Shown in pieces: positions 1,139 to 42,053 of a stretch of 64,000 nucleotides of DNA (position 1 is the stretch's first letter; each line of letters starts with the position of its first letter). The notes beneath the pieces were generated by a model, which saw only the letters and a program-made list of their open reading frames with translations, ran no database searches and was not told the origin of the DNA. Both the position numbers and the translations under genes were made by a program. Origin of the DNA: Patescibacteria group bacterium (GTDB taxonomy: Bacteria; Patescibacteriota; Patescibacteriia; JAXHNJ01); contig JAXHNJ010000001.1 of the NCBI GenBank assembly GCA_034520665.1, positions 258,579 through 322,578 of the forward strand, written 5' to 3'.

Positions 1139-1146
1139 AAATTACA

Positions 1147-2990: not shown

Positions 2991-3009
2991 AAATTGTTCT
3001 AATTTTCTA

Positions 3010-4121: not shown

Positions 4122-4952
4122 ATGGAAAAAAATCTAGAACAATCACAATCTACTAAAAAAATGGAAAAGCCGGAAGATTGGCTGCCAGGGGGGACTGAGC
4201 AAGAACAATATCTCAAAGAACATAAGGAATGGCGGGGTTTAGAAAAACGATTAGGGCAACCGAGGATATTAAATAATGTTTATTTCCCGGAAATTTTAGC
4301 TTGGATTCAAGAAGAATTTAAAGATAATCCTGATGCTTTTTCTTATTTCGAGGCAGGCTGTGGCCACGGAAATGATTTTCGAACCATAAGAAAAGAGCTT
4401 AAGGCTAGAGGCCGCTATCTCGGCGTTGATATGAGTAAGGCAGAAATCATTCACGGGATGAAATTTTATAAAGACGCGGAGGAAGCAAGAAAATTATTTG
4501 CTCAAGGTGATCTTCGTAATTTAAGACATGTTAATATTTGGGATAGGGGAAAAAGAGATTTTTCTCAACCTGTGGAAATTAAAGATGGCGAATTTGATCT
4601 TATCTATATGGAGGCGGTGTTACACGGACTTGGTTATAGTAAAAAAACCTTTCAAGAGAAAAAGGAATCAGCCCAACAGATGCTTAATGAATTATATCGT
4701 ATTTGTAAAGCTGGAGGAAAATTTTTTGGACGAGCCTCCATATTTGGCTCCACCATTACAAAAGAAAAACAATTTGAACTTCTGCGCAAGACAAATAATT
4801 GGCGCTTCATTCCTGAAGCTGAAGAATTTAAAGAAATACTTAAAAAAGCAGGGTTTACAAATATTAAAGGGGCATTGACTCCACATGAAAAAGCAAAAGA
4901 GGATCCAAATAAAAAAGATATTCTGCGATTTTCTTTTTTAGCTGAAAAATAA
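4122..4952 (+). CDS. class I SAM-dependent methyltransferase
   Basis: Motif I EAGCGHGND, then an acidic residue at the end of beta-2 (LGVDMS). Confidence 0.6.
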   Translation: MEKNLEQSQSTKKMEKPEDWLPGGTEQEQYLKEHKEWRGLEKRLGQPRILNNVYFPEILAWIQEEFKDNPDAFSYFEAGCGHGNDFRTIRKELKARGRYLGVDMSKAEIIHGMKFYKDAEEARKLFAQGDLRNLRHVNIWDRGKRDFSQPVEIKDGEFDLIYMEAVLHGLGYSKKTFQEKKESAQQMLNELYRICKAGGKFFGRASIFGSTITKEKQFELLRKTNNWRFIPEAEEFKEILKKAGFTNIKGALTPHEKAKEDPNKKDILRFSFLAEK

Positions 4953-4985
4953 TTTTTTCAGATTAAAAAATGTATTTTGCAAACA

Positions 4986-5090
4986 GTACATAACAAGGTA
5001 TATCTGGTTTCGCTTCTCCTAAGGTTGTCCCTTGATATAAATTTAATACTTCAGATATACGCGAACGTTAATTGCAATTTAGTTTAGGAC
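4986..5090 (+). repeat. attC-like boundary repeat (ATAACAAGGTATATCTGG ... CAGATATACGCGAACGTTAAT)
   Basis: Outer arms are reverse-complementary. An identical copy sits at 8345-8449 inside the segmental duplication. Confidence 0.55.
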
Positions 5091-5134
5091 TTTCTGACAT
5101 AAAATTTATATAATACATAACCCATTTTTTTCTT

Positions 5135-5608
5135 ATGAAGTTTAGAAAATTTAAGAAGAGTGATATTAGACAGATTGCAAAAATTAAGAATTCTGTTTTT
5201 AGTAGTTTCAATAAATCAGAATATTTTGAAAAAGGAACCGTTTCAAAATATTTAAATTACACCAATTCAAAAAAGTCAGACAAAGAACTCCTTGAAGCAT
5301 TTAAGATAACTAAGGATTCTATTTTTTATGTTGCTGAAGAAAATGATAAAATTTTCGGATATATCAAAGGAAGAAAAAATAGAATCGGGAATTTGTTTGT
5401 TCTTGGTCAAAACCATAAAAAAGGGATTGGTAGAAAATTAGTTAATTTATTTGAAAAAGAAGCAGAAAAACAGAACTCTAAAGAAATTAAGATTCACTCT
5501 TCAATTTATGCAGTTCCTTTCTATCAAAAAAGGGGTTATAAGAAAACTACTGGAATTAGAAATCTTCATGGCTTGAAGATTCAACCAATGAAAAAAGTCC
5601 TAAACTAG
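5135..5608 (+). CDS. GNAT family N-acetyltransferase (paralog 1 of 2)
   Basis: HKKGIGRKLV motif A. 98% identical to the ORF at 8494..8967. Confidence 0.65.
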   Translation: MKFRKFKKSDIRQIAKIKNSVFSSFNKSEYFEKGTVSKYLNYTNSKKSDKELLEAFKITKDSIFYVAEENDKIFGYIKGRKNRIGNLFVLGQNHKKGIGRKLVNLFEKEAEKQNSKEIKIHSSIYAVPFYQKRGYKKTTGIRNLHGLKIQPMKKVLN

Positions 5609-5993
5609 ACTTCTTCGAAATTTTTTCAGAATTCCTCGACCCCGCTGCGCTCTCGCCTATGGCTCGGGGTAATTAACAGGATTTTAACGGAAAAATACTC
5701 GGCTCGCATTTTCCCAAATCGCCTACGGCAAAACTTCTCTAAATCCTGAAGTTGTGCAAGACCCCATTTCTTGCCAAGAGGATTTTCAGGATTTTTTGAG
5801 AAAAGGGGAGTAGGGGAAGAGGTTTTTTATTGGTAAAAAAAATGGTAAACTATAGACAGTATCGGATTATATAATGGTTTAATAAAACTTCGTATAATAA
5901 CGAGTTAAGTGAAATTGAGAATTTGTCCTATGAGATTTAAATGGGCACGATTTTTTCCGAAAACTTTATATCACTACATACTTTTATTAATTT

Positions 5994-6470
5994 ATGATGG
6001 ACATAATCAAAATAAGCGAAGATTTCGCAAAAAAAGAATATGCAAAGCATGATGAACTTCACCAATGGAATCATGTTGAAGATGTGATGAATGTGGCTTT
6101 GAAATTATCCGAGTTTCATCCAGAAGCAAATTTAGAAATTTTAAAACTTGCTGTTATCTTTCATGATATTAGTTATGAACAATATGAAACTCATGTTGAA
6201 GAGTCCATGAAAGTAGCAGAAAAATTTCTAAAAGAGCAGGATTATCCGGAAGATAGAATCAAGAAAGTTTTGCAAGTGATGATTTCTCATTCTGGCCCTC
6301 ACAGAAGAAAACTCGGTGAAGCAAAAATGATTGAGGGAAAAATCATTTATGATTCTGATAAATTCCATCTTGCAAAAACTAGAGAGGGATTTGAAAAATA
6401 TTTTGATAGATTTTATCTGGATGAAACTCGTGATATGATTAAAAAAACGTGCCCTGAATTCTTTAAATAA
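5994..6470 (+). CDS. HD-domain phosphohydrolase
   Basis: H...HD motif (HDELHQWNHVED ... IFHDISY). Confidence 0.55.
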   Translation: MMDIIKISEDFAKKEYAKHDELHQWNHVEDVMNVALKLSEFHPEANLEILKLAVIFHDISYEQYETHVEESMKVAEKFLKEQDYPEDRIKKVLQVMISHSGPHRRKLGEAKMIEGKIIYDSDKFHLAKTREGFEKYFDRFYLDETRDMIKKTCPEFFK

Positions 6471-6708
6471 ATGTAAACTTGACGGACAAATTCTCAACTT
6501 GCTCACTATCGTTCGCACCACGCTGCGCTCTCACTTCGTTCGACCCTCATTTAACAAGGGATAAAAGGAAAATTGCTCGGCTCGCAATTTTCCCAAATTT
6601 TCTCCACTACGTTCTGAAAACTTCTTTTATCCCTGATGTTATATGAAATAAATTTTGGCGCGCTAGAAAAAAACCTTAATAAACAAATTCCCCCTAAGTA
6701 TTATTAAC

Positions 6709-7368
6709 ATGAAAAAATCTAAACTTCTCTGGTATATTTTAACAATAGTCCCAATCGCATTATTAATTCTTGGATATATTTTTCCCTCATCATTCTTTGG
6801 AAGTCAAGAGGCAATTAGAGATTTTGTTTCTCAATTTGGAATTTTTGCCCCTCTTGCCTTCATTGTGCTTCAAATCCTGCAAGTTGTAGTAACGCCCCTT
6901 AGTCATTATACTGTTTCAATAGCGGGCGGATTTATTTTTGGAACATGGCAAGGTTTTATTTATAATTGGATTGGTAGAGTAATTGGAACAGCAATCGCTT
7001 TTTATCTTGCTCGAATTTTTGGAAGAAAAATTATTAAGCATCTTGTTAAAAAAGAAACTATCCAAAAATACGATTATATATTTGAAAAAGGAAAACTCTT
7101 ACTGTTCTTAGCATATTTCTTGCCATTGTTCCCAGATGATGAACTTTCATATCTTGCAGGACTTTCAGCAATTAGTCCAAGAATCTTTTTACCTTTAATG
7201 GCGATTGGGCATATTAGTGGAAGTTTAAGTTTAGCTTACATCGGCAACGGGATACAATCTTTCAAAGAGCCGATGTTTATAATACTCTCATTAATAACTT
7301 TAATTGGGGGAATTTGGTTTGCATGGCATTATCAAAAAGTTAAAAATAATGCTAATACCAAAGTGTAA
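6709..7368 (+). CDS. DedA/TVP38/TMEM64 family membrane protein
   Basis: Multi-TM protein with a G-x-x-x-FG...F-x-P...S-x-AG-like signature (GGFIFG ... LAGLS). Confidence 0.6.
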   Translation: MKKSKLLWYILTIVPIALLILGYIFPSSFFGSQEAIRDFVSQFGIFAPLAFIVLQILQVVVTPLSHYTVSIAGGFIFGTWQGFIYNWIGRVIGTAIAFYLARIFGRKIIKHLVKKETIQKYDYIFEKGKLLLFLAYFLPLFPDDELSYLAGLSAISPRIFLPLMAIGHISGSLSLAYIGNGIQSFKEPMFIILSLITLIGGIWFAWHYQKVKNNANTKV

Positions 7369-7627
7369 GATGCGCGCCAAAATTTATTTCACAAAACGGG
7401 CGGGCAAGGAGTTAGAAGAACAAGCTAGAAAAAATCTTAAAAGAGAATTAGCAATGTTGTCGTAAAAATTTTTCTTAACATCAACTAATACTGTGTATCT
7501 GGTTCCACAAATGAGAAATAATTGATTATTTTTTACATTCTTGGTTGCCCTTTTACAATTTTATAAAAGAGAAAGGCCGAGTCCCGCAAATCTGCGAAAC
7601 CCGGCCGAATGGATGGGGGCGGGGCTT

Positions 7628-7798
7628 TCAATACCAGCCCGCGTCTCCTGCTTCCTTAATTTGCTGCGCCTTGGTCTTTACTTCCTGAAGAGCCTTAAGC
7701 ACCTTTGGGTCGTCCTTGTACTTCTCATCGAGTTGGTTGAGGAGATACAGGATTTCCCCTGCTGCCGTGGATGCTCCTACTCCGCTAATCATATTCAT
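7628..7798 (-). CDS. small hypothetical protein (56 aa) with strong Shine-Dalgarno sequence, on a GC-rich insert
   Basis: Minus-strand ORF MNMISGVGASTAAGEILYLLNQLDEKYKDDPKVLKALQEVKTKAQQIKEAGDAGWY, preceded by GGAGGTG. Local GC about 50% against about 30% in flanks. The overlapping + strand ORF 7541..7903 looks like a translation artefact. Confidence 0.35.
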   Translation of the reverse strand: MNMISGVGASTAAGEILYLLNQLDEKYKDDPKVLKALQEVKTKAQQIKEAGDAGWY

Positions 7799-8095
7799 TG
7801 CGCACCTCCAATGTTCACGACATATTATCCTAGCAGATTATGCCCTGCCTGTCAAGCTAACAAATCTTTAAAAATTGTAAAAATCCCTAAAGTTAGGGTA
7901 TAATAATAAAGAATTTCTCATTTGTTCCACCTAAATTCTCATTTCGTATTGTGCTGGCGCTCTGCGCAATTTTATCACCTACATACACTCGTGACTTCGC
8001 ATACGCATGTCTGTTAGATGAAATAATAAAAAAATTCTTAACTATTGATAAATAATAAAATTTAACAATAATATTAACACTAGCAATACAAACTT

Positions 8096-8311
8096 ATGAA
8101 AAATTTTGAAAAAAACATTGGCCAAGGAGAAAGTTTATTAGAATTAGCCGCAAAAAAACTTAATTTAGATCCAAAAAACACCTCGTTAAATGAAGTAGAG
8201 GCAGTTATGCTTGGATTGCCAAAAGAAAGTTCCGTTTATGAGGTTGAAAAAGCAAAAGAGGATCCAAATAAAAAAGATATTCTGCGATTTTCTTTTTTAG
8301 CTGAAAAATAA
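8096..8311 (+). CDS. hypothetical protein; the last 20 aa are identical to the C-terminus of the methyltransferase at 4122..4952 (chimeric ORF at a duplication junction)
   Basis: C-terminus KAKEDPNKKDILRFSFLAEK is shared. The duplication breakpoint falls inside the ORF. Confidence 0.3.
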   Translation: MKNFEKNIGQGESLLELAAKKLNLDPKNTSLNEVEAVMLGLPKESSVYEVEKAKEDPNKKDILRFSFLAEK

Positions 8312-8493
8312 TTTTTTCAGATTAAAAAATGTATTTTGCAAACAGTACATAACAAGGTATATCTGGTTTCGCTTCTCCTAAGGTTGTCCCTTGATATAAA
8401 TTTAATACTTCAGATATACGCGAACGTTAATTGCAATTTAGTTTAGGACTTTCTGACATAAAATTTATATAATACATAACCCATTTTTTTCTT

Positions 8494-8967
8494 ATGAAGT
8501 TTAGAAAATTTAAGAAGAGTGATATTAGACAGATTGCAAAAATTAAGAATTCTGTTTTTAGTAGTTTCAATAAATCAGAATATTTTGAAAAAGGAACCGT
8601 TTCAAAATATTTAAATTACACCAATCCAAAAAAGTCAGACAAAGAACTCCTTGAAGCATTTAAGATAACTAAGGATTCTATTTTTTATGTTGCTGAAGAA
8701 AATGATAAAATTTTCGGATATATCAAAGGAAGAAAAAATAGAATCGGGAATTTGTTTGTTCTTGGTCAAAACCATAAAAAAGGGATTGGTAGAAAATTAG
8801 TTGATTTATTTGAAAAAGAAGCAGAAAAACAGAACTCTAAAGAAATTAAGATTAACTCTTCAATTTATGCAGTTCCTTTCTATCAAAAAAGGGGTTATAA
8901 GAAAACTACTGGAATTAGAAATCTTCATGGCTTGAAGATTCAACCAATGAAAAAAGTCCTAAACTAA
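8494..8967 (+). CDS. GNAT family N-acetyltransferase (paralog 2 of 2)
   Basis: Differs from 5135..5608 by three substitutions (S45P, N104D, H130N). Confidence 0.65.
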   Translation: MKFRKFKKSDIRQIAKIKNSVFSSFNKSEYFEKGTVSKYLNYTNPKKSDKELLEAFKITKDSIFYVAEENDKIFGYIKGRKNRIGNLFVLGQNHKKGIGRKLVDLFEKEAEKQNSKEIKINSSIYAVPFYQKRGYKKTTGIRNLHGLKIQPMKKVLN

Positions 8968-9007
8968 ACTTCTTCGAAATTTTTTCAGAATTCCTCGACC
9001 CCGCTGC

Positions 9008-9084
9008 CTGCCCGCCATAGTCTACGGCATCAGGCCTTGGCTCGCCCGCCTGAGTTGCTCAGGCAAGTCGGGCGGCAGGCGGGC
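9008..9084. repeat. 77-bp GC-rich palindromic insertion (REP/MITE-like) present in only one copy of the duplicated repeat
   Basis: CTGCCCGCC...GCCTGAGTTGCTCAGGC...GGCAGGCGGGC has terminal and internal inverted repeats. The paralogous position 5647/5648 is uninterrupted. Confidence 0.6.
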
Positions 9085-9412
9085 GCTCTCGCCTATGGCT
9101 CGGGGTAATTAACAGGATTTTAACGGAAAAATACTCGGCTCGCATTTTCCCAAATCGCCTACGGCAAAACTTCTCTAAATCCTGAAGTTGTGCCAAACCC
9201 CATTTTTTGCCAAGAGGATTTTCAGGATTTTTTGAAACAAGGGAAGTAGGAGAAGAGGTTTTTTTATTGGTAAAAAAAATGGTAAACTATAGACAGTGTT
9301 GGATTAATATAATGGTTTAATAAAAATTCGCATAATAAACAAATTTGAGGTGATTATACGAAATCAATTCGTATAATAACGAGTTATCGGAAATAAAAAT
9401 AGTAAAATTTTT

Positions 9413-9973
9413 ATGGGTAATAAAAAAATCTTCACAATCAGCTCTGATTTTGAATTAATTAAAAAACCAAAATGGTTAGATGGCTTTCGTATTAAGCACG
9501 ATAAACCTTTTCCATATCACGTAACTTTAAAAACATGTACATACTTTGATATTGATAATTTTAAAAATTTAAAAAAAGACTTAAGTGGTATTGTTAAAAA
9601 ATATAGCGAGATCAAGGTTATATTTAACAAACTTTTTATAAGTCGCTCTTCAAAGGGCGAATGTATTATGATAAAAGCAGATAATAATAAAAAGCTAAAT
9701 GAACTCCAGAAGGAAATTGTGAAAAAGTTTTCAAAATATGGGAATTATATAGCGAAAAAATACGAAAAATTCGAGAAAAGTTTTATTCCCCATATTACTA
9801 TCGCGCGACATCTTTCATCAGAACAATTGATAATTGCAAAAAAGGATTTAGGGAAAAAACTATTTTGTGAAGCTGTAGTCAAAGGGCTTTCTTTAATGAT
9901 AGTGGAAAATAATACTGATGAAGAATGGTTAAACCACAACAATAAAAGTTATTACAAGTTACAGAACAAATAG
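9413..9973 (+). CDS. 2H phosphoesterase superfamily protein (LigT/2'-5' RNA ligase-like)
   Basis: Two H-x-T/S-x motifs (YHVTLK and PHITIA) about 90 aa apart. Confidence 0.55.
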   Translation: MGNKKIFTISSDFELIKKPKWLDGFRIKHDKPFPYHVTLKTCTYFDIDNFKNLKKDLSGIVKKYSEIKVIFNKLFISRSSKGECIMIKADNNKKLNELQKEIVKKFSKYGNYIAKKYEKFEKSFIPHITIARHLSSEQLIIAKKDLGKKLFCEAVVKGLSLMIVENNTDEEWLNHNNKSYYKLQNK

Positions 9974-10157
9974 AATTTTACTATTTTTACCTTCCGATAA
10001 CAGCGTGTATGCGGTTCGGACTTTCCCTGAAAACCCTCTCCCATATTTTTGCTCCCGTTGGTCGCAAAAACATCGCATACGCTGGAACGTTAAGTGAAAT
10101 TGCGGAGGGGCGCCTAATACGATACTTTTTATAAGTGAGTGAATTTACAATACTATT

Positions 10158-10832
10158 ATGACAACAAAACTTCGCGAACCAGATGAAGAAAATTATGTCT
10201 TTACCGAGGGTATTGATTATTCAAAAACAGAAAAAAAATTTATCTGGGGAACTGGTGATAAAGACACTCTGGAGCTTCTGAATGATATTAAAATTCGAGG
10301 CAAGTGGCTAAACCTTGCCGCTGGTGATGGACGTTACAATTTGAATTTGTTGGAAAAAGTTAATTCAGTTGTTGCTTCAGATATTGATGAAGGTGCGCTT
10401 GGCAAATTGAAACAAAACACACCTAACGAACTAAGAGAAAAACTACAAACAGAAATTTTTGATATAACTAAACCATTTCCATTTGAAGATGAATCATTTG
10501 ACGGTGTGTTTTGCACTGGGACATTACATCTTTTTCCAACTGAAATTTTGCAGCAAATTATTTTAGAGATTGATAGAATTCTAAAATCCAATGGCAAACT
10601 GATTATAGACTTTGCAACTGACATCAAACGTATTCTGCCAGATGGCAAACTTTATATCAGAAAATCTGAACCTCAATACACTGCCGAAGAAGCCGCAAAA
10701 TTTCTCAGAGAATTATTGCACAATTATCAAATTCAAATTGTAGAATCAGAAGTTCCAGAGGAAGAAATTAAGACGCGAGGTTTTGTTTATAGATTTAGTT
10801 GTAAATTCATTTTACTAACAGCAGATAAATAA
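10158..10832 (+). CDS. class I SAM-dependent methyltransferase
   Basis: Motif I LNLAAGDGRYN, then VVASDID (acidic residue at the end of beta-2). Confidence 0.6.
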   Translation: MTTKLREPDEENYVFTEGIDYSKTEKKFIWGTGDKDTLELLNDIKIRGKWLNLAAGDGRYNLNLLEKVNSVVASDIDEGALGKLKQNTPNELREKLQTEIFDITKPFPFEDESFDGVFCTGTLHLFPTEILQQIILEIDRILKSNGKLIIDFATDIKRILPDGKLYIRKSEPQYTAEEAAKFLRELLHNYQIQIVESEVPEEEIKTRGFVYRFSCKFILLTADK

Positions 10833-11172
10833 TGACGGCGACCCCCACAACTCTCGCCAGCCCTTCGGGACGTTGCACTAAATTTTTGCCCTTCGGGACA
10901 TATAACAAGGGATATGAGGTTACGAAGTTTTGCAGACTTCTTTACTCAAATTCGCCTACGGCGAACTTCTCATAAGCCCGATGTTAAATGAAATTTTGCC
11001 TTGAAATGTGAAGTGAAAAATATTCGTGCTATTAAAAAAAGATAGTTCGTAATTTCAAAATTTATTTTATTTATCGGCAAAACTTCACTTAACACTGTGT
11101 ATCTGGTTCCGTAAAAGAGAAAAATTAAATAATTCTCTATTTTTAAAAGCCTTTTTTCAATTTTTTTACAAA

Positions 11173-11200
11173 GAAAAAACCAGTTGTTAGGGACAACTGG
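11173..11200 (-). terminator. Rho-independent terminator for the minus-strand gene 11217..11591
   Basis: Minus strand reads CCAGTTGTCCCTAACAACTGG followed by a T-run: an 8-bp stem plus TTTTTTT. Confidence 0.55.
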
Positions 11201-11216
11201 AAAACCCTTATTTTGT

Positions 11217-11591
11217 TTAGAGGACTGCGTAGTACGGCATTCCGCCAGGCAGGGCTGACCACATGGCACGCGGCATAAGGCATTTGGCCTTGCCGATCGC
11301 GGTGCCGAGTTGAAAGAGCTGGTCCATGCGTTGGTGCAGATCTGTCCACTGATTGCCATGCTTGTCGTTACAGGCATTCAAAAAGGACGTGCCGCCACCA
11401 CCGGACATCTTGAACTCGTCGGGTAATTCATCCAGTATTTCCTCAATCTCGGCCTTATGGCTTTCCAGTCTGTCGGTATGAAAACCAACATTCTGGGTTA
11501 TACCCTCGGCTTTGACATAATTGTTGGTTTCCTCATCTTCTTTGAACAGACAGTCTATGAAGATTGCATTTACGCGTTCGGGATCAATCAT
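11217..11591 (-). CDS. hypothetical protein (124 aa), compositionally foreign (higher GC), minus strand
   Basis: ORF has its own terminator and sits inside a split boundary repeat. GC about 47%. No motif recognised. Confidence 0.45.
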   Translation of the reverse strand: MIDPERVNAIFIDCLFKEDEETNNYVKAEGITQNVGFHTDRLESHKAEIEEILDELPDEFKMSGGGGTSFLNACNDKHGNQWTDLHQRMDQLFQLGTAIGKAKCLMPRAMWSALPGGMPYYAVL

Positions 11592-11907
11592 CTTCGTTCC
11601 TCCTTTGTTAAGGTTATCAGCAAAATTACTGATTATTAAGTATGGCAGATTTCTTATTTCATGTCAAGCTTGGCGACCAAAAAATTGAAAAAAGGGCTTT
11701 AATAGCTTTAATATAAGGTAAATTATTATTTTTTCTCTTTTACTTCACCCAAATTGTTCGTTCCTCGCAAATTCTCATAATCCTAACGTTATGTGAAATA
11801 GCCAGAAATTTCTTAATTATTTTTTAAGATTTTTTTGGCAATTTATTTCACGTCGAACATAACTTGTGGTATAATTTAGTCAGTTTAATTAATTAACCAA
11901 TAAAACT

Positions 11908-12207
11908 ATGTCAGAAAAATTCGAAGGCAATTTGCCACCTCAAGAGCAAAAAGAAGGTTATTCAGCAGATTTCGTAGCCAAGGTAAAAGAAGTATTTCCA
12001 GATTGGGATCGCATGAATCAAGCGCTGGAATCTGGTAGTGAGTGGGTCGGTCGTTATCTTGATGATTCGCGCGGTTTTTCAATGAAGCCAGATGAAATTG
12101 TCCAAGCTCTTGAAGGCGGCGATCAAGAAAAAGTTCTTGAGGCGGCAAGGAAAGCCAAAAAGATTGATGAGCTTTATAAAGAATGGTCTGAATCACGGGA
12201 AAAATAA
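11908..12207 (+). CDS. hypothetical acidic protein (99 aa)
   Basis: Preceded by an extended -10 promoter: TTCACG, 17 nt, TGgTATAAT at about 11850-11878. The + strand frame looks more protein-like than the overlapping minus-strand frame. Confidence 0.4.
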   Translation: MSEKFEGNLPPQEQKEGYSADFVAKVKEVFPDWDRMNQALESGSEWVGRYLDDSRGFSMKPDEIVQALEGGDQEKVLEAARKAKKIDELYKEWSESREK

Positions 12208-12256
12208 ATTGCCAAAAAATAATAATAAGGAATAGAAATTTCTGTCAACATCACAT

Positions 12257-12400
12257 AACAGCGTGTATCTGGTTCGGCAAATTTGACACAATTAGATTCA
12301 AAAGGAATGTCAAATCTACCTCTCCCAAATTTCGCAAAAAAATACTATTTTTAAAGGAATTTTTGCGAAACTTCAGATACACGCAAACGTTATACGCAAT
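12257..12400 (+). repeat. attC-like boundary repeat, the best-preserved copy
   Basis: Outer arms ATAACAGCGTGTATCTGGTTCGG ... CTTCAGATACACGCAAACGTTATACG. Two inner inverted repeats: AAATTTGACA/TGTCAAAT and TTTCGCAAAAA/TTTTTGCGAAA. Confidence 0.6.
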
Positions 12401-12589
12401 TCAAAAAATATTTTTTTTATAAGGAATTTTGACAGGCTTTTTAAAAAGGGGAATAAATTTGTTTTTTTATTAATTAGAAAGGGGTAAATGGTGTTTTCTC
12501 CGCTATCGCTCCGAAAACGATTTATTATTGGAAAAAGACAAAAAGTTTTATATACTTAAATTAGTTTTAACTTATTAAAGGATTAAAAT

Positions 12590-15337
12590 ATGAGTGAAGA
12601 ATTACTACAAAGAGGACTAACTAAAAAAGGAATTACATTCATAGATTATGAATTTTTTCCGTTACACTCAACGACCTTAAAACAATATAAAAAGTTAAAA
12701 ATAATTCCTAATAAAGATTATGATAAATATGAAATTAGAAAACCTGACGGGCTTTTAGTAGACAGAGGAAATAAATCAAAGCCGAAAGTTGTTACAGTTT
12801 TGGAATACAAAAAACCTTCTGAATTTCAAACAGATAAACAAAAAAGAGAAGCGATTGAACAATGCAATGATTTGTGTCAAGAGCTTGAAGCAAAAATAGG
12901 AATTATTACAGACGGAATTGTTACTTATTGGATAAATCCAAACCACGCAGATAAAAATAACAAATACAAAGATAGAACAACTGGGAAGAAGCGAAGTTTT
13001 TCTTATATCTTAAATGATGATAAGCAAAGATTACAAAAGAAGTTTTTCATTAAAGAGAACGATAAAAAAGATATTTCAAAATTGAATAATGAAACAAGAG
13101 AAACTTACAGATTAGTTAAAAGAATTTTAGAAGAAACAAATAATAAAAATTCTGTTTTGAAAGCAACAGAAAAAACAGACCCAACCCCTCTCGCGAGAAG
13201 TGTTTGGCAAAGTATTTACATAAGCACAAAAGATAATCCAACAGCTTGTCTTTATAATGTTGTTGAGATTTTTATCTTTAAGTTTCTGAGTGATTTAGGA
13301 GTTTTAAAAGGAGTTAATAGTTTTGATTATTTATTGAAACTTTACAAAACAGAAGATAGTAAAACAGTTTTAAAACACTATGCTAAAACTTGCAGAGAAG
13401 AAATAAGAAATTTATTTGAAGCGGGAGATGACGGGACAACAATAATTAATGGAACTATTTTTGTAAATAAAGACGGAAGCCCTGTTTTATCACAAGCGAC
13501 TTTATTTAAAGACACTATTGAAAAATATGCAAAGTTTGGAGATTTAAAAAATATTGACAAGGGATTTAAAACAAAATTGTTCGAAACATTTTTGAAGCAG
13601 AGTAAGGACAAAAGTAAGTTAGGACAATTTTTTACACCGAGAAAAGTTGTTAAGGGAATTGTTGAAATGGCTGATGTGGATAAAGCGGAATTTATATGCG
13701 ACCCATTTTGCGGTGTTGGTGGTTTTCTTTTAGAGCCATTTCAAATATCTCAAAATTTGAAAAATAAATTTATTCCAAAGAATAATGAAATAAATCCGCC
13801 TGTAAAACTTTTAGGATATGATACAGGAAGAGAAGATAACGACGAACAAAAGAGGACTATTATTTTAGCAAAGGCGAATATGCTTATTTATTTGTCTGAT
13901 TTAGTCGAAAAAAATTCTACATTAAACGAGGAATTTTCAAAAATAATAAATAATACTTTCCACTTTTTATCGGATAGTAATCTTGGAACACTAAAAGAAA
14001 CTGAAAGATTTGAAAGAAATGAGGATAAGCCTGATTTAATTATTACCAATCCTCCATATATCACAAGCGGAGTAACTACAATAAGAAAACAGATTGAGGA
14101 AGATGGTTTAACTGATTATTATAAAAATAGTGGAAAGGGAATGGAAGGTTTATGCTTAAAATGGATAATAAAAAATTTGAAAAGAAAAGGACAAGCATTT
14201 ATTGTTTTGCCAGATAGTATTTTTAATGTTTTTGCCAATAAAGTTTTAAGAGATGAAATAAAAAAGAATTGTTATATTAATTGTATTATATCTTTACCCG
14301 CAAAAACTTTCTTTAATACTCCAAAGAAAACTTATGTTTTAGGAATTACAAAAAAAGATTGTGATGAAGATGAATGTGAAAATCTTAAACAGGATTTTCC
14401 TGTATTCACTTATTTAGTTTCTAATATCGGGGAAACATTAGATATTAACCGATTCGAAATTCCTGAAAATGATTTGGATAATGCGAAGAATTTGTTTAAT
14501 CAATTTAAAGGAAGTCCAAATAATTTTCAAACAGATGACTCACGATGTAAATTACAACCTATTGAAAAATTTGAAAATGAGAAATATTGGATAATTGATA
14601 AATGGTGGAGTAAAAAAGAAAAAATAGAAATTGAAATTGAAGAAGAAGATGAAAGTTTAACTATTGATGAATTTAAAGATCAAATTGAAAAAACAAAGGA
14701 AAAATTAGGAGAATTAGAATGGGTGGCAGATAAAACAAAAGAGAGAAAATATAAAACCAAAATGATGTATGTAACGGATGATAAGATAAATAAAAATAGG
14801 AAAGAAGAAGGAATTTTTGAAGCAGAAAAAGGAAATGCAAAATACACAAAAAAATATATGCACGACCATAAAGGTGAGTTTCCTGTTTATTCTTCTCAAA
14901 CTTCTAATTTAGGCGAGATAGGAAGCATAGACACCTATGATTATGAAGAAGAATGTTTTACTTGGACAACCGATGGAACTTATGTTGGAACTGTTTTTTA
15001 TAGAAATGGTAAGTTTTCAATAACCACTCATTGCGGAATTTTAAGAGTTAAACCAGAATACAAAGATAAAGTTGATTTTGAATATTTGAATTTTATCTTA
15101 AATCAAACACTCCCTAATTATAAATTAGGTGAAGGTTCTAATAAAAGATTAGGGACTGAAAGAATGAAGGAAATTCAAATAGAAATCCCAATAAACAAAA
15201 ACGGAGAATTTGACTTAGATAAACAAAAAGAAATTGCTGAAAAGTATAAGAAAATAGAAGAAATCAAGGAAAAACTTAAAGACAATTATGAAAAGATGAT
15301 AAATTCAAAAGTTCAGATTATTGAAGCAGAAGAATAA
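12590..15337 (+). CDS. Type IIG (MmeI-like) single-chain restriction-modification enzyme: N-terminal PD-(D/E)xK nuclease, gamma-class N6-adenine methyltransferase, C-terminal target-recognition region
   Basis: N-terminal KPDGLLVD...VLEYKK matches PD...ExK. Methyltransferase motif I FFTPRKVV...DPFCGVGGFL. Motif IV ITNPPY. The 915-aa length matches MmeI architecture. Confidence 0.7.
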   Translation: MSEELLQRGLTKKGITFIDYEFFPLHSTTLKQYKKLKIIPNKDYDKYEIRKPDGLLVDRGNKSKPKVVTVLEYKKPSEFQTDKQKREAIEQCNDLCQELEAKIGIITDGIVTYWINPNHADKNNKYKDRTTGKKRSFSYILNDDKQRLQKKFFIKENDKKDISKLNNETRETYRLVKRILEETNNKNSVLKATEKTDPTPLARSVWQSIYISTKDNPTACLYNVVEIFIFKFLSDLGVLKGVNSFDYLLKLYKTEDSKTVLKHYAKTCREEIRNLFEAGDDGTTIINGTIFVNKDGSPVLSQATLFKDTIEKYAKFGDLKNIDKGFKTKLFETFLKQSKDKSKLGQFFTPRKVVKGIVEMADVDKAEFICDPFCGVGGFLLEPFQISQNLKNKFIPKNNEINPPVKLLGYDTGREDNDEQKRTIILAKANMLIYLSDLVEKNSTLNEEFSKIINNTFHFLSDSNLGTLKETERFERNEDKPDLIITNPPYITSGVTTIRKQIEEDGLTDYYKNSGKGMEGLCLKWIIKNLKRKGQAFIVLPDSIFNVFANKVLRDEIKKNCYINCIISLPAKTFFNTPKKTYVLGITKKDCDEDECENLKQDFPVFTYLVSNIGETLDINRFEIPENDLDNAKNLFNQFKGSPNNFQTDDSRCKLQPIEKFENEKYWIIDKWWSKKEKIEIEIEEEDESLTIDEFKDQIEKTKEKLGELEWVADKTKERKYKTKMMYVTDDKINKNRKEEGIFEAEKGNAKYTKKYMHDHKGEFPVYSSQTSNLGEIGSIDTYDYEEECFTWTTDGTYVGTVFYRNGKFSITTHCGILRVKPEYKDKVDFEYLNFILNQTLPNYKLGEGSNKRLGTERMKEIQIEIPINKNGEFDLDKQKEIAEKYKKIEEIKEKLKDNYEKMINSKVQIIEAEE

Positions 15338-15625
15338 ACTTTTGAATAAGGAGTTTTGAAAAATGGAATTCACCCCTAACCCCCGCCCGCCTCGCTACGC
15401 GAAGCGTTGCGGGCAGGCCTCTGCCCAAAATTCAAAACGGGAAAAATCAAATTTATAAGAATTAAAGAAAGTCTATCATGAAGAATAAGAACGAAAAATA
15501 TTTTTTGAACTCACTCCGCTTTGCTCCGCAAAACATCAAATATAGGCAAACCTTGTGCCAGACCTCATTTCTTGTCAAGAGGATTTCCAGGACTTTTTAA
15601 GAAAATGAAATTAATTTATTAAAAT

Positions 15626-16258
15626 ATGATCCTAAAAATATTATACAATAATAGGGCTAAAGAAGGTTTTAAAGAAGGTTGGGGATTTTCTTGCTTGATT
15701 GAATCTATTAAGGAAAATAAGAAAATCTTGTTTGACACTGGGGCTGACTTTGAAACTCTTAGTTTTAACGCTCAAAAACTAGGGGTAAATTTTAAAAATA
15801 TTGACAAGGTAGTTATTTCCCATGACCATGATGACCACACCGGCGGCTTGGCAGGAGTTTTAAAGGAAAATAATAAGGTAAAAGTTATCTGGCCGAAAAA
15901 TGAAAATAGTTTTAGAATTATTAGCGGTATTTTTTCAACCGGCTCTTTGAAAGCAGCCATAGACTTAAAAGAGCAGTCTTTGTTTTTGGCAACAAAGAAA
16001 GGTTTAGTCATTATAGTCGGTTGTTCTCATCCCGGAGTGGATAAAATTCTTCAAAGAGTAAAAGAGGTTAGGTCTTTAAAAAATAATAAAAAGATTTACG
16101 CTATTATTGGTGGTTTTCACGGCTTTAATAAATTAGATGAATTAGAAGGAATTGAAGTTATTGGCGCTTGCCATTGTACGTCACATAAACAAGAAATTAA
16201 GAAGAAATTTCCTGATCAGTTTAAAAAAATAAGAGCCGGTGATATAATAAAATTATAA
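15626..16258 (+). CDS. metallo-beta-lactamase-fold hydrolase
   Basis: HxHxDH motif (ISHDHDDHTGG), and downstream His and Asp residues (GFHG). Confidence 0.6.
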   Translation: MILKILYNNRAKEGFKEGWGFSCLIESIKENKKILFDTGADFETLSFNAQKLGVNFKNIDKVVISHDHDDHTGGLAGVLKENNKVKVIWPKNENSFRIISGIFSTGSLKAAIDLKEQSLFLATKKGLVIIVGCSHPGVDKILQRVKEVRSLKNNKKIYAIIGGFHGFNKLDELEGIEVIGACHCTSHKQEIKKKFPDQFKKIRAGDIIKL

Positions 16259-29906: not shown

Positions 29907-30184
29907 GAGAATCTTAAAAGCCGTAATAGCCGTAGAGCCATAAAAGCCTTAAAACCTTATTGAATAGGGGATAGCCTCTTATTTTTAGGCTGTTTTTATT
30001 ATTTTTTTTGCCACTTGTTTAACTTTATTCATAATAAACTTATTTACAAGCCGAAGCTCCGAGCAAAGTGAGGAGCGAAGACTTGACGTTCGCCCGTTCG
30101 ACCAGGCTCAGGACGATTTAAATATTAGACATTTGTATTTATTTAATTAATTTGGCTGTAAAATAGGTATTTTTTTAATATCTA

Positions 30185-30213
30185 TTGACGTTCGCTTTTT
30201 GTTCGTGTATAAT
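30185..30213 (+). promoter_or_regulatory. lexA promoter (TTGACG, 17 nt, TATAAT) with an overlapping GTTC-N7-GTTC direct repeat, a candidate LexA operator
   Basis: ttGACGTTCgctttttGTTCgtgTATAAT lies 37 bp upstream of the lexA ATG. The direct-repeat box type is established for alphaproteobacterial LexA, so applying it here is inference. Confidence 0.35.
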
Positions 30214-30249
30214 GAATATGGTTGTGGATAATTATTAATTTTTAAATCT

Positions 30250-30861
30250 ATGGCGGAATTAACCAAAAAACAGCAAGATATACTAAATTACGTAGTCAAT
30301 TATATTCAAGACCATGAATACAGTCCTTCTTTTCAGGAAATTGGCCAGAATTTTGGCCTGTCTTCCAAAGCCACGGTTTCAGCCCATGTTCACGCCTTGA
30401 TAAAAAAAGGTTATTTAAGAAAGGTCAAGGGCTTAGCTCGGTCTTTAAACCTGACTAAAAAAGTTTATCAGCAGGGCCAGGCCGTGCAGCTGCCGCTTTT
30501 GGGCTTGATCGCCGCGGGTGAGCCAATTGAAGCTATTGAAGATAATGAAATGGTTTCTGTACCGGCCGGGGTGGTGCAGGACGCCAACTCTTATGTTTTA
30601 AAAGTAAAAGGGCAGTCCATGATTGAAGAAGGTATACTGGATGGTGATTATGTGGTAGTGGAAAGGAATTTTTATCCGCAAAACGGAGACGTGGTAGTGG
30701 CTTTGCTGGATAATGAATATGCCACCTTGAAAAAATATTTTCGTGAGAAAAACCGCATTCGCCTGCAGCCGGCTAATAAAACCATGAAACCAATTTTTGC
30801 CAAGAATCCGGCTATCCAGGGCATTGTCCGGGGCATTTACCGGGTCTTTTCTCATGCGTAA
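30250..30861 (+). CDS. lexA: LexA repressor (S24 peptidase)
   Basis: N-terminal winged helix-turn-helix. Cleavage-site region AAGEPIEA. Catalytic Ser within GQSM, and Lys further downstream. Confidence 0.85.
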   Translation: MAELTKKQQDILNYVVNYIQDHEYSPSFQEIGQNFGLSSKATVSAHVHALIKKGYLRKVKGLARSLNLTKKVYQQGQAVQLPLLGLIAAGEPIEAIEDNEMVSVPAGVVQDANSYVLKVKGQSMIEEGILDGDYVVVERNFYPQNGDVVVALLDNEYATLKKYFREKNRIRLQPANKTMKPIFAKNPAIQGIVRGIYRVFSHA

Positions 30862-30919: not shown

Positions 30920-31851
30920 ATGAAAAAATATAATCTTAAGAACCAAGTTCATTTCATCACTATTAATACATATAAAAAATACTGGCTTTTTAAGAAAGAA
31001 AATCTTTGCCAAATAGTAATTGATAATCTAAATTTTTACCGCCGTAAATTTAGTTTTAAATTATTGGGTTACGTAATTATGCCTAATCATCTACATTTAT
31101 TAATCCAATTAAATAAAAAATATAATGATATTTCAAAGGTAATGAGGGATTTTAAGAAATTTACAAGTGTTCAAATTATAAAGCAGTTAATAAAAGAAAA
31201 TGAAAAAGATTTACTTAAGAAATTTTCTATGACTGGAAAAATTTTTAATTATCCCTCTACTCTGGGTACTGCCCGATCCTCAGATCGGGCCGGCTTTCCA
31301 GCTGAAGGCCGAATCTGAGGATTCGGCCTACCCGACTAGTTTTAGAAAGAAGAGAAAATATTCAGTCTGGATGAATGATTTTTACGACTTTAACATCTAT
31401 TCCGAGAATCTTCTACTCTGGGTACTGCCCGATCCTCAGATCGGGCCGGCTTTCCAGCCGAATCTGAGGATTCGGCTTACCCGACTAGTTTTAGAAGGAA
31501 GAGAAAATATTCAGTCTGGATGAATGATTTTTACGATTTTAATATCTATTCCGAGAATTTTCTACTCTGGGTACTGCCCGATCCTCAGATCGGGCTAGTC
31601 TCTCGGCCGAATCTGAGGATTCGGACTACCCGACTAGTTTTAGAAAGAAAAGAAAATATTCAGTCTGGATGAATAATTTTTACGACTTTAATATCTATTC
31701 CGAGAATAAACTAGAGCAAAAACTTAATTATATTCATAATAATCCAGTCAAAGCCAAGATAGTTAAAAAACCTGAGGATTATAAATGGTCTTCTTACAGA
31801 AATTATTATTTGGATGATGATTCAATAATAGAAATTAATCAGTTATTTTAA
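30920..31851 (+). pseudogene. Disrupted IS200/IS605-type (REP-associated) tyrosine transposase gene, interrupted by three tandem 149-156-bp repeats that each carry a GC-rich double hairpin
   Basis: N-terminal part 30920..31318 has the HuH motif (MPNHLHLLIQ). C-terminal part 31669..31851 has the catalytic Tyr region (VWMNDFYDFNIY...YIHNNPVKAKIV...DYKWSSY). The 149-bp repeat is not a multiple of 3, so the frame is broken. Confidence 0.6.
31254..31707 (+). repeat. Three tandem copies (156, 149, 149 bp) of a unit made of a GC-rich palindromic element plus about 75 bp of transposase coding sequence
   Basis: Each unit has the hairpins GCCCGATCCTCAGATCGGGC and CCGAATCTGAGGATTCGG. A fourth partial copy sits at 31928-32143. 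Confidence 0.8.
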
Positions 31852-32160
31852 ATAATTTAAATTCTTAAAATATGGTATTACTAAATATTATTTCTGGGTA
31901 GGCGAAAGCCCTCGCTTTTGCCATACTTTGATGCTTAAAACATTTTCTATGACTGGCAAAATTTTTAATTATCTCTCTACTCTGGGTACTGCCCGATCCT
32001 CAGATTGGGCCGGCTTTCCAGCCGAATCTGAGGATTCGGCCTACCCGACTAGTTTTAGAAAGAAAAGAAAATATTCAGTCTGGATGAATGATTTTTACGA
32101 TTTTAATATCTATTCCGAGCATAAATTTAATAATAGAAATTAATAGACTATAAAAAAAAC

Positions 32161-32409
32161 ATGCACGAAAAAATTAACGAGCCAATAAAAGTTCTAGCTT
32201 CTTTTTTAAAAGGGCAGGTTAGTCCGCTTTCTTTTGTTTGGCAGGGCCGGCGCTATAATCCGACTAAAATTAATTTGGTTCATTCAGAGAGAAAAGGTAA
32301 AGGAAAAATTTATTATTTTTCGGTTTCCGATAATTCTAATTTTTACCGGCTGGCTTTTAATAATGAAAATCTTAACTGGCGCTTGATGGAAATATATTCG
32401 CAAAATTAA
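32161..32409 (+). CDS. hypothetical protein (82 aa)
   Basis: ORF only. Confidence 0.3.
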   Translation: MHEKINEPIKVLASFLKGQVSPLSFVWQGRRYNPTKINLVHSERKGKGKIYYFSVSDNSNFYRLAFNNENLNWRLMEIYSQN

Positions 32410-32610: not shown

Positions 32611-32880
32611 AAGGGCAAAGTAATTTTATACAAAATAATAATTTTGTCAAGTATTTTTTGGCTACCAAGCTTATTTTTGGCTAATATTAGTTTATTAATA
32701 TCTAAATTCTAAACAAATTTTAAATTACAATATTTTAAACTATAAATTATTTTGATTTTTCGAGAATAGAACCAAATACTTTCATAAGTTTTGTAGATTC
32801 GTTGATTAGTATATTTTTTTTCTCCCACTTGTTGATTTATAGGATTAGTTAACCTTTTTATTATCAACAAAAAGATATCT

Positions 32881-33183
32881 CAAAAATTATCTTACACATT
32901 GATATGAATAGCTATTTTGCTTCTTGTGAACAGCCCCGCACCACTTCTCTTCGGCGCTCAGAGTTGGATGCGGGACGAAGTTTAATTAATTTTATATTTT
33001 TATGACTTCGATTATCTTACATATTGACATGAACAGCTATTTTGCTTCCTGTGAGCAGCCCCGCACCAATTCCTCGTTTTACTCGGAACGATGCGGGACG
33101 AAGTTTAATTAATTTTATATTTTCATGACTTCGATTATCTTACACATTGATATGAACAGCTATTTTGCTTCTTGTGAACAGCA
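32881..33183 (+). repeat. Three tandem 122-bp repeats. Each holds the first ~55 nt of the dinB coding sequence plus an upstream GC-rich hairpin; the third copy is the functional gene start
   Basis: ATGACTTCGATTATCTTACA(C/T)ATTGA(T/C)ATGAACAGCTATTTTGCTTC recurs at 32886, 33003 and 33125. Hairpins CCCGCACC...GATGCGGG lie between copies. 122 is not a multiple of 3; the decoy ATG at 33003 opens a 38-codon frame. Confidence 0.8.
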
Positions 33184-34330
33184 AGCTAATCCTTTTTTAC
33201 GGGGTAGACCGGTCGGAGTTTGCGCTTATTTGTCAGAGCAGGGTTGTATTATTGCTTCGTCCATTGAAGCTAAAAAAAAAGGAGTGAAAACTGGCTGTCG
33301 CGTCAAGGAAGCCAAGCAGCTTTGTCCAGATATTTTTTTAATGGAAAACGAGCCGGCTAAATACCGCAGTATTACTAAAAAAATTTTCTCTATTCTAGCC
33401 GAATATACCGATAAACTAGAGCCTTACAGTATTGACGAGGCTTTTTTAGATCTCACTGGTTGGTCTAAAAACTTTAAACAAGCTAAAGAAAAAGCTAAAG
33501 AAATTAAAGATCGAATAAAGAACGAAGTCGGGGACTGGCTCAAAGCCTCGGTCGGTCTTTCTTACACCCGCTGGCTGGCCAAATTTGCTTCAGACCAGGC
33601 CGATAAAGATAGTATTTTAATAATAAAGAAAGATAATTTAGATAAATTTTTAAAAAGACCCTTAACCAGTGCTTGGGGTATTAATTACCGACTGGAGAGT
33701 AGACTAAAATCTTTGGGTATTTTTAATTTGCTCGATTTAAAAAAATATCCAGTAGCTAATCTAATGCAAGTTCTGGGTCGGCCTGGCTATTATCTCTGGG
33801 CTAATGTTAACGGTCTACCGACAGAAAAAGTAAAAAAACAAAAAGAGCCTAAATCAGTCGGTCATAGCTATTGTTTATACCAAAAATCAAAGGATATCGA
33901 TTATTTATCTTCAGTTTTGCTCAAGCTTTGCGAAAAAACCGGCCGCCGCCTGCGGCTTTTGGAAAAAGAGGCTCACTCAATCAGCTTTGGCTTAAGATTT
34001 AAAAACGGCGGCGGCCTTCATCAGGTAAAGAGAATTAAAAATGGTCTTTTTACCACCAAAAGTATTTTTCGAACTGCTTTAAAGATTATGTCAAAAATTC
34101 ATCTTTATGAAGAAGTTTCTTTTCTAGCCATATCAGTTTCGCACCTGTGGTCAATCAGCCGGCAAATGTCTCTTTTTAAAGATAATCTTAAAGAAAAAGA
34201 GATAAGCTTGGCTATGGACAAAATTAATGATCAATACGGCCAGTACTTGGTTTACTGGGGGAGTATGCACGGCACTGATAAAGTGGCCCGCGACCGCATT
34301 GGCTTTCGTAAAACTGTTAATACAAATTAA
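33125..34330 (+). CDS. dinB: DNA polymerase IV (Y-family, translesion synthesis)
   Basis: N-terminal ILHIDMNSYFASCEQ. Catalytic DE (SIDEAFLDLT). Length and organisation match DinB. Confidence 0.9.
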   Translation: MTSIILHIDMNSYFASCEQQANPFLRGRPVGVCAYLSEQGCIIASSIEAKKKGVKTGCRVKEAKQLCPDIFLMENEPAKYRSITKKIFSILAEYTDKLEPYSIDEAFLDLTGWSKNFKQAKEKAKEIKDRIKNEVGDWLKASVGLSYTRWLAKFASDQADKDSILIIKKDNLDKFLKRPLTSAWGINYRLESRLKSLGIFNLLDLKKYPVANLMQVLGRPGYYLWANVNGLPTEKVKKQKEPKSVGHSYCLYQKSKDIDYLSSVLLKLCEKTGRRLRLLEKEAHSISFGLRFKNGGGLHQVKRIKNGLFTTKSIFRTALKIMSKIHLYEEVSFLAISVSHLWSISRQMSLFKDNLKEKEISLAMDKINDQYGQYLVYWGSMHGTDKVARDRIGFRKTVNTN

Positions 34331-41610: not shown

Positions 41611-42053
41611 TCAAAACCCCACAACTTCGTCCAAAAACCAAACAATTTACCCGACCCAACCACCAAAAACCTTCACCTATTGACCAAAAACCAAACAATC
41701 AACCCAACCTAACCACCCCCACCTCTTCCATTGTCTTTTTTCCCAATATATGCTATAATAAAGACACAAAATAAAAATAAATAAACAATATTGTGTTTTT
41801 AGTTATTAAGCTAAATTTTAATATAATTAACAGGGGCGCTTTTCATTATACCTAGCGCTTTTTTTGTTATAAATATAATTTGGAAAAAATGAGTATACAT
41901 ATTTTATCTTTAATTTAAAATTATTAACAGTAGGCTAGAGTTAAATTTTAGTTTGTATATCTTCTCTTATCTAATAGAGAAGTTAAATAAATCATCATTT
42001 TTTTTGGCTGGGGTTTACTAGTTATATTGTTTTTAAGAAATAAATAATGATAG

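Follow-up and report, generated by a model that had tools for sequence, protein, structure and literature searches.

Displaced copies of the dinB start alternate with GC-rich hairpins upstream of the DNA polymerase IV gene in Patescibacteria

In one Patescibacteria genome, dinB, the gene of the Y-family DNA polymerase IV (Pol IV), is preceded by two further copies of its own 5' end, each followed by a GC-rich hairpin and an AT-rich tail. The gene is located in a stretch of 64,000 nucleotides (the window; positions 258,579 to 322,578 of contig JAXHNJ010000001.1, assembly GCA_034520665.1), and all the coordinates given below are those of the window. We have compared it with 160 related Patescibacteria dinB loci (partly redundant; some of the scans covered 164 loci and 1.1 Mb of related DNA). 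Nine of about 160 contained the same arrangement, i.e. one or two stubs of the dinB 5' end, a GC-rich insert and then the complete gene, and about 94% of the relatives had no stub at all. The array is best read as the footprint of a small cassette that encodes no protein, rather than as a purpose-built decoy. Specifically, we propose a dinB-specific stub-plus-hairpin cassette. Homologous recombination along the highly conserved first 60 nt of dinB would bring in such units, multiply them and remove them again, a proposal whose chances appear to us evenly balanced. The stubs diverge from the live gene almost exclusively at synonymous positions, the carriers are patchily distributed, one module (in locus L077) is foreign to its host and decaying remnants are found elsewhere, and for these reasons the upstream copies are probably displaced, formerly functional 5' ends borne by a horizontally spreading insert.

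The array (positions 32877-33182, plus strand) has the order stub 1, hairpin 1, AT-rich tail, stub 2, hairpin 2, tail and then dinB itself (33125-34330), in short A-B-A-B-A. It is recovered by Tandem Repeats Finder (TRF) as a single array at 32886-33182 with a period of 123, 2.4 copies and 86% matches. One unit runs from a dinB 5' stub through the hairpin, a linker (C.AAG) and the AT-rich tail to the ATG of the next copy. A preliminary description of this DNA, made from the letters and a list of open reading frames, had reported a triplicated dinB start in 122-bp units, each copy being preceded by the same hairpin and spacer. The 58-nt 5' segment of dinB is complete twice (33002-33059 and 33125-33182) and represented by 49 nt at 32886-32934, but the first copy lacks ATG ACT TCG and has neither a hairpin nor a spacer upstream of it, hence the array does not consist of three hairpin-plus-start units. 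The distances from start to start are 125 and then 123 nt, since hairpin 1 is longer by 2 nt.

Stub 1 (32877-32934) reads ATC TCA AAA ATT ATC TTA CAC ATT GAT ATG AAT AGC TAT TTT GCT TCT TGT GAA CAG C. It has lost the start codon (ATC TCA AAA stands in place of ATG ACT TCG), and its codons 4-19 specify the amino acids of DinB with one synonymous difference from the live copy. Hairpin 1 (32935-32974; CCCGCACC ... GATGCGGG, with the motif TTCTCTTCGGCGCTCAGAGT in its interior) follows, and then the linker ACGAAG with AT-rich tail 1 (TTTAATTAATTTTATATTTTT; together 32975-33001). Stub 2 (33002-33059) preserves dinB codons 1-19 plus one nucleotide (ATG ACT TCG ATT ATC ... GAG CAG C) with four synonymous differences from the live copy, and is followed by hairpin 2 (33060-33097; CCCGCACC ... 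GATGCGGG) and by the linker ACGAAG with tail 2 (33098-33124). The two tails are about 98% identical. The hairpins have the base of the stem (CCCGCA..TGCGGG) in common and unlike interiors, so that one GC-rich hairpin per unit was correctly described but the two are not the same element throughout. As also described earlier, only the third copy continues into the polymerase. It is the sole complete one, an open reading frame of 401 aa on the plus strand with the Pfam domains IMS (6e-44) and IMS_C.

Two upstream open reading frames (uORFs) arise from this layout, in agreement with the earlier suggestion that the upstream copies could act as such. The first (32904-33005, plus strand, 33 codons) begins at the internal ATG of stub 1 and crosses hairpin 1, and its TGA overlaps the ATG of stub 2 (ATGA); tail 1 and this overlap at 33002 provide stops in all three frames. 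The second (33002-33112, plus strand) comprises stub 2 and hairpin 2 and stops with a TAA 12 nt before the dinB ATG. It had been taken for an out-of-frame ORF of 38 codons; it does end before the real start, but it has 36 codons, the first 19 of them the same as those of DinB. No Shine-Dalgarno sequence was found before the dinB ATG. No match to a LexA operator, either GAAC-N4-GTTC or the GTTC-N7-GTTC of the lexA promoter, was present in the repeat units, and the promoter scan gave no sigma-70-like site in the tails and one weak site upstream of stub 1.

Among the related loci, the copies are joined to the inserts at only two points of the gene. In class II (GARCARC|CCCGCA) the junction is located after the GARCARC of E-Q and the stub comprises codons 1-19; it includes the window (two units) and the loci L085, L149 and L091. 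In class I (GAC|CC(C)G) the junction is found ten codons earlier, after the GAC of H-I-D, and the stub is made of codons 1-9 (L014, L090, L008, L111, L077 and L011). In both classes the hairpin opens with (C)CCCG at the junction and closes with CGGG(G/A), followed by the C.AAG linker. The inserts have 48-67 nt and no coding content. In L085, whose DinB is 83% identical, there is one stub. In L149 (DinB 56% identical) there are two, and its hairpins, unlike in sequence, are both 30 nt long and keep an in-frame GAC TAA stop. L091 has the class II junction with a different GC-rich filler. The tail TAATTTTATATTTT(T/C)ATG is found in the window, in L085 and also in the native spacer between dinB and orf82 in L091; orf82 (32161-32409 in the window) is a small gene that normally precedes dinB. 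We also considered whether the class II tail could be a decayed version of dinB codons 20-27, and discarded it because the similarity was not above that of shuffled sequences.

Six nucleotides after the stop of orf82, L085 has ATG TCA AAA ATT ATT TTG CAC ATT GAT ATG AAT, which matches stub 1, therefore stub 1 is a former native dinB start that has lost its ATG (ATG to ATC). The stub of L085 has itself suffered a 51-nt GC-rich insert and a Cys-to-Arg change. L096 and L142 retain only the 3' arm of the hairpin, the linker and the tail, and L127 only the tail, which indicates that the modules also decay.

The hairpins are predicted to fold in all cases. The 5-bp base of the stem (CCCCG...CGGGG) is kept in 10 of the 10 aligned hairpins, in L008 and L111 through double changes (CG<->GC), and the inner stems vary from lineage to lineage and yet stay paired (UUCC/GGAA in the window, UUUU/AAAA in L085). 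The pattern CCCGCA-N8-38-TGCGGG is found in the 64 kb just at hairpins 1 and 2 (0.01 occurrences expected) and, throughout the 164 loci, only in L014, in L002 (the locus of the window itself) and as one chance match inside a gene in L054. Within these partial genomes, i.e. the 64-kb window and 1.1 Mb of related loci, no further copy of the hairpin was detected, and thus it is not a dispersed repeat. No Rfam family matched the hairpins or the leader at the gathering and E-value thresholds. In IMG/VR, the matches to a 15-mer from the class I tail were no more than chance ones, and a viral relative of dinB was not found.

The 51-nt GC-rich insert of L085 has relatives in two hairpin interiors, that of hairpin 1 (p = 0.0005) and that of L077. 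A wider assignment of the interiors to a dispersed TTCG..GCTCA family was rejected, as the loose motif is not enriched, although these three are mutually related. Small GC-rich inserts of the TTCGAC..GCTCAGG type are observed in the window (30097-30115), in L085 (352-402), in L091 (3058-3081) and upstream of dinB in L098; the one within the L085 stub is in frame and lacks a flank duplication.

A way to see how these copies arose is to examine where they differ. Comparing 12 stubs with their live copies, we found 66 nucleotide differences, 54 at the third codon position against 8 at the first and 4 at the second, and among the codons that differ 51 were synonymous and 4 non-synonymous (binomial p = 7e-16). 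The copies differ at up to 25% of the positions, almost only synonymously. The copies of L149 disagree in half of their codons, one of the changes being a serine switch (TCG<->AGT), and the peptide is unchanged. Divergence that is nearly all synonymous implies that each stub was until recently, and for almost the whole time of its divergence, a working dinB start, or was copied from one; neutral decay after a local duplication could not yield such a pattern.

The copies are also mosaics. In the window the first 18 nt of the live copy (ATG ACT TCG ATT ATC TTA) equal those of stub 2, and the next 40 nt (codons 7-19) equal those of stub 1 save for one base; stub 2, for its part, shares CAT...TCC TGT GAG with the live copy of L085. 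In L091 both copies have the same last 40 nt, and their first 18 nt differ at six positions. The downstream copy of L014 has 1 mismatch in 27 to the relative with the empty site and the upstream copy 4 mismatches, and two of the three private variants of the upstream copy are common to the stub of L090. Such variable internal boundaries point to crossovers within the repeated segment and not to a recombinase with a fixed core.

The distribution of the carriers is scattered, and the nearest DinB relatives of every one of them lack the insert. An empty site is provided by L014 and its relatives L102 and L103, with 92-93% nucleotide identity over the flanks and the gene; exactly 75 nt are missing from L102/L103. 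Replacement of the whole gene by a foreign dinB in L014 was considered and rejected, given that the body of the gene is as close to L102 as the flanks are. L077 and L008 have DinB proteins only 35% identical and nearly the same linker and tail. The module of L077 contains CGG GGC AAG (R-G-K) and ACGAATTCTTAT, and its own gene has CGC GGA CTG and ATG AAC TCA TAT; this mismatch of codons shows the module to be foreign to its host. All the DinB relatives come from Patescibacteria (the candidate phyla radiation, CPR). Within 3-4 kb of dinB in ten carrier loci, no protein family was common to them beyond DinB, orf82 and LexA, and no recombinase or transposase.

In the mechanism that we favor, donor DNA with a stub and a hairpin would pair out of register with the resident dinB and add one unit. 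The donor could be the sister chromosome, or it could have been acquired by uptake from a different strain or lineage, and the pairing would take place along the almost invariant segment of about 60 nt encoding H-I-D-M-N-S-Y-F-A-S-V/C-E-Q-Q-A-N-P. Each gain would push the previous start upstream and leave the gene intact, and a crossover between adjacent copies would delete a unit. This turnover would explain the perfect DinB N-terminus of the stubs in spite of their heavy synonymous differences, the mosaic live copy and the presence of 0, 1 or 2 stubs in different relatives (same-species strains are not among them). The idea of phase variation by copy number, put forward in the preliminary description, finds some support in these varying numbers, but the copies are not nearly identical, as slippage would need. 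As for expression, dinB is presumably translated from the last ATG, without a Shine-Dalgarno sequence. Ribosomes starting on a stub would read through the hairpin and stop 12 nt before the next ATG or overlapping it; in all class II units (5 of 5) the uORF stops at -12 to +1 of the next ATG, which makes termination-reinitiation plausible.

Parts of this scheme are familiar from other systems. Functionally nearest are integrating elements that restore the end of the gene they enter, as SXT/R391 does at the 5' end of prfC, and the ICESt1/CIME arrays, in which such elements accumulate in tandem. As in the former, direct repeats of a conserved gene end flank an insert that supplies a new start and leaves the gene intact; as in the latter, repeated events would give a repeat-insert-repeat-insert-repeat pattern. 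However, the inserts at dinB have only 48-67 nt and are non-coding, there is no integrase nearby (in the ten loci, over 3-4 kb), and the repeats have mosaic boundaries with many synonymous changes rather than a fixed crossover core. Tandem duplications are also produced by homology-facilitated or out-of-register recombination after natural transformation, and a short conserved anchor and mosaic repeats whose number rises and falls would fit such an origin. Unlike random scars of recombination, however, the dinB arrays carry the same non-coding hairpin, linker and tail each time, conserved across very distant hosts. We classify the array as a combination of gene-end-restoring insertion and of repeat turnover driven by homologous recombination. 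A literature search on start-restoring duplications returned nothing relevant.

Several observations weigh against the proposed recombination of a dinB-specific cassette. The left homology arms (27-58 nt) are short for RecA, and the middle unit of the window was not recovered from a second assembly. The use of two fixed junctions across lineages with 35-83% identity could mean a site-specific process. The conserved and co-varying base of the hairpin, together with the conserved linker and tail, suggests a function, of which a passive scar would have no need. In about 10 of 11 cases, moreover, it is the minus strand that forms the more stable hairpin (hairpin 2 as RNA has -25.4 kcal/mol, z -4.6, on the minus strand and -15.0 on the plus strand), a bias that the model does not explain. 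Finally, the class I insert resembles rearranged pieces of dinB. Its 3' arm with the linker, (T)TGCGGGGCAAGC, equals the native codons of L-R-G-K (exactly so in L012, L110 and L140), its 5' arm is an inverted copy of (T)TGCGGGGCAAGC, and its tail, ATGAATTCTTAT, equals the native M-N-S-Y codons immediately past the class I junction. Such an insert may have originated within a dinB fragment, through template switching or the formation of a quasi-palindrome.

A bolder version of the cassette proposal would see in the module a selfish or semi-domesticated mini-element, devoid of enzymes and addressed to the 5' coding sequence of dinB, that spreads among distant Patescibacteria by uptake and out-of-register recombination. 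Such an element would spare the host gene, every insertion leaving a complete start downstream. We offer this only tentatively, as a reading that is less likely than not. Its conserved hairpin may promote its own recombination, or it may form part of a reinitiation leader that re-tunes Pol IV outside the LexA operon.

The latter brings us to the main competing explanation, that the stubs and hairpins are a functional leader. Translation of the stub uORF would melt the hairpin and hand ribosomes by termination-reinitiation to the dinB ATG, or else the hairpin would block read-through; in both variants the output of Pol IV would be set independently of the lexA-orf82 operon. The likeness to uORFs, leader peptides and translational coupling is real, with short ORFs ending at or just before the main start and a hairpin in between. 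The uORFs do exist, the class II stops are placed as described in 5 of 5 units, the dinB ATG lacks a Shine-Dalgarno sequence, the base of the hairpin has been maintained through compensatory change, and the hairpins of L149, different in sequence, keep their 30 nt and the in-frame GAC TAA stop. In the window, moreover, a 7-bp stem (CGAAGUU/GACUUCG) encloses each start. Yet this start-sequestering stem is absent from L085 and L149 and thus specific to the window, and among alternative pairings none proved to be conserved. Stub 1 is without its ATG, the stub of L085 is interrupted by the 51-nt insert besides its Cys-to-Arg change, and in class I the uORFs stop anywhere between -35 and +20, so that the geometry is not conserved in this class. 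All-frame stops in an AT-rich tail would occur by chance in about 20% of cases (estimated from the base composition). A leader peptide has no need of the exact DinB N-terminus, whereas the uORF here is the gene's own N-terminus and the first stub is startless. About 94% of the relatives manage without the structure, and its remnants are decaying (L096, L127). We consider the leader a doubtful explanation for the whole array, and a regulatory role of the stubs alongside the cassette possible. Nothing in these data points to the ribosome or regulator sponge that the preliminary description had entertained; one copy is startless, and the initiation region is not cleanly triplicated in tandem.

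Alternatively, the hairpin might be a transposable palindrome, such as a repetitive extragenic palindrome (REP), a miniature inverted-repeat transposable element (MITE) or the end of an IS200-type element, moved on single-stranded DNA by an HUH/Y1 or other transposase. The duplicated dinB segment would then be a by-product of the insertion or of flanking DNA carried along. A short, GC-rich, imperfect palindrome with compensatory changes in an AT-rich genome certainly resembles REPs, their paired form (REPINs) and MITEs. Its left end is fixed at the junction and its right boundary variable, the hairpin is better formed on one strand, the interiors share a motif with another small GC-rich insert, and a Y1_Tnp gene, similar to REP-associated tyrosine transposases (RAYT), is found 1.3 kb upstream in the window and also in L035. 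Against this, there are no further copies in the 64 kb or in the 1.1 Mb of related DNA, and the hairpins are confined to coding-derived sequence of one gene. In the window the RAYT-like gene is broken by a repeat and the hairpins inside it have an unrelated sequence, and the carrier loci share no transposase. Duplications of 27-58 nt counted from the ATG are unlike known target-site duplications, and the boundaries of the repeats are mosaic. We find this origin unlikely.

A purely local tandem duplication, by slippage or unequal crossing-over, independent in each lineage, neutral and slowly decaying, is disfavored as well and in our judgement quite improbable. The tandem layout would speak for it, as would a second array of 3 x 149 nt, located in the window 1.2 kb farther upstream, and the stretches over which copies agree (40 nt in L091; 48 of 49 nt when stub 1 is compared with the live copy). 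It does not account for the 2.4 units, with a stub 1 that has a different upstream region and different codons 1-3, nor for hairpin interiors that differ when the tails are about 98% identical. The divergence of up to 25%, almost only synonymous, is not what such a process would leave, lineages with 35-60% identity have the hairpin base, the linker and the junctions in common, and the module of L077 does not match its own gene.

The possibility that the assembler had chained strain variants of a two-copy locus into three copies was weighed with the data available for the source genome, which is present in one sample only (SRR26473340). The independent Logan unitigs of this sample break inside the shared 34-nt tail, where a graph of 31-mers must branch. 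Unitig L002 extends from orf82 across stub 1 and hairpin 1 as far as the tail, and unitig L001 begins 31 nt upstream of the dinB ATG, within tail 2; the middle unit was therefore not independently recovered by these short-k unitigs. Look-ups of both uORF products in other assemblies gave no record. Stub 2, however, has private variants (CAT, GAC, TCC and GAG), and is bounded on the left by the tail and on the right by the interior that only hairpin 2 has, from which it follows that a genome holding it probably has at least three copies. Triple and double versions occur in unrelated assemblies (L149, L085, L091 and others), which makes the architecture biological; L149, which comes from another study, likewise has three copies, and two are present in eight more loci. 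An artefact of assembly is very unlikely.

Programmed bypassing is known from T4 gene 60 and from the GC-hairpin inserts called byp in mitochondria, and a version of it, with take-off at the last stub codon before the hairpin and landing on the same codon of the next copy, would agree with the DinB amino acids kept in the stubs, with a GC-rich hairpin within coding sequence immediately after a codon that recurs downstream and with the identical landing codons, but it is hardly credible when a start codon is missing from stub 1 and the stub of L085 is interrupted, when the live copy always has its own ATG and full N-terminus (dispensable under bypassing), when the gaps are 75-123 nt compared with 50 nt in gene 60, and when the take-off codon is not directly followed by a stop. 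Two other kinds of array were considered and rejected. Integron attC sites have the core sites R''/R' (RYYYAAC ... GTTRRRY) and come with an intI gene; the hairpins here end in CCCCG ... CGGGG-C.AAG, and no integrase was found in the ten loci (3-4 kb). A TIGR or CRISPR guide array is not compatible either with units of 123-125 nt, mostly of gene sequence, and with no Rfam match; such guide arrays have short units of about 36 nt with conserved edge and loop repeats, spacers of 8-9 nt and an adjacent Tas or Cas gene (PMC12045711).

If the cassette proposal is correct, a conserved coding sequence would serve as the homing address of an insert that encodes no protein, and candidate-phyla bacteria, thought to depend heavily on uptake, would swap sub-gene cassettes over deep phylogenetic distances. 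The structure also bears on the expression of an SOS mutator polymerase. In the carriers, dinB is uncoupled from the usual lexA-orf82-dinB arrangement and has one or two uORFs with their hairpins in front of it. In annotation, such stubs are readily miscalled as small genes or as the true start.

The SOS context proposed in the preliminary description is borne out by the neighborhood of dinB. The window contains an operator-like sequence, GTTCGCTTTTTGTTC (30190-30204), the lexA promoter and lexA (30250-30861), i.e. 30190-30861 in all on the plus strand; GTTCGCTTTTTGTTC is a direct repeat within the lexA promoter. The small gene orf82 (82 codons, plus strand) has no Pfam family. In most of the 160 relatives it is located directly upstream of dinB and often overlaps its start, and GTTC-N7-GTTC is found on the dinB strand in 66 of the 164 loci, 1-3 kb upstream, and in L052 and L062 immediately in front of dinB. 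From both facts the usual arrangement appears to be a lexA-orf82-dinB operon. GTTC-N7-GTTC is a candidate LexA operator of this group, a GAAC-N4-GTTC box being present in the Saccharibacteria/Doudnabacteria loci L072-L076, and orf82 would be a conserved, uncharacterised partner of Pol IV in Patescibacteria. In L052 (2868-4010) a 1.1-kb insert with an uncharacterised 198-codon ORF separates the real dinB start from a partial copy of it (36 nt); the real start keeps the operator-like CTGTTCTATTTTTGTTCT directly before the ATG.

In the window, an insert of 467 nt parts orf82 from stub 1. A possible small RNA gene is located inside this interval on the minus strand (about 32650 to 32420). Its candidate promoter is near-consensus (TTGACA-16-TAAAAT, 11/12), and the putative transcript combines a structured, GC-rich body (GGGGGCGAATTTTCGTCCGTG...CACGGGAAATTTGCCCC) with a hairpin and a run of seven T that resemble a terminator, and has no Rfam match. 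L085 lacks the interval, and there orf82 abuts the old dinB start.

The RAYT-like gene of the window (Y1_Tnp; 30920-31851) is split into four ORFs by the tandem repeat of 3 x 149 nt (31256-31707), each unit of which consists of a GC-rich double hairpin (CCCGATCCTCAGATCGGG ... CCGAATCTGAGGATTCGG) and 39 nt of coding sequence. A second partial copy is found at 31934-32143. In L035 (1025-1627) an intact RAYT-like ortholog has an in-frame double hairpin at the same position, different in sequence and yet self-complementary, as if the insert in this gene were a structured, REPIN-like element maintained within the transposase ORF. Farther away, positions 1-16000 of the window are dense in dispersed repeats, with families of 30-300 nt (e.g. 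4886-5185 equals 8245-8544 at 100%), and in GC-rich structured islands such as 8986-9111 and 15365-15434, and a C/A-rich 53-nt tandem repeat (2 copies, 79% matches) is located at 41612-41717.

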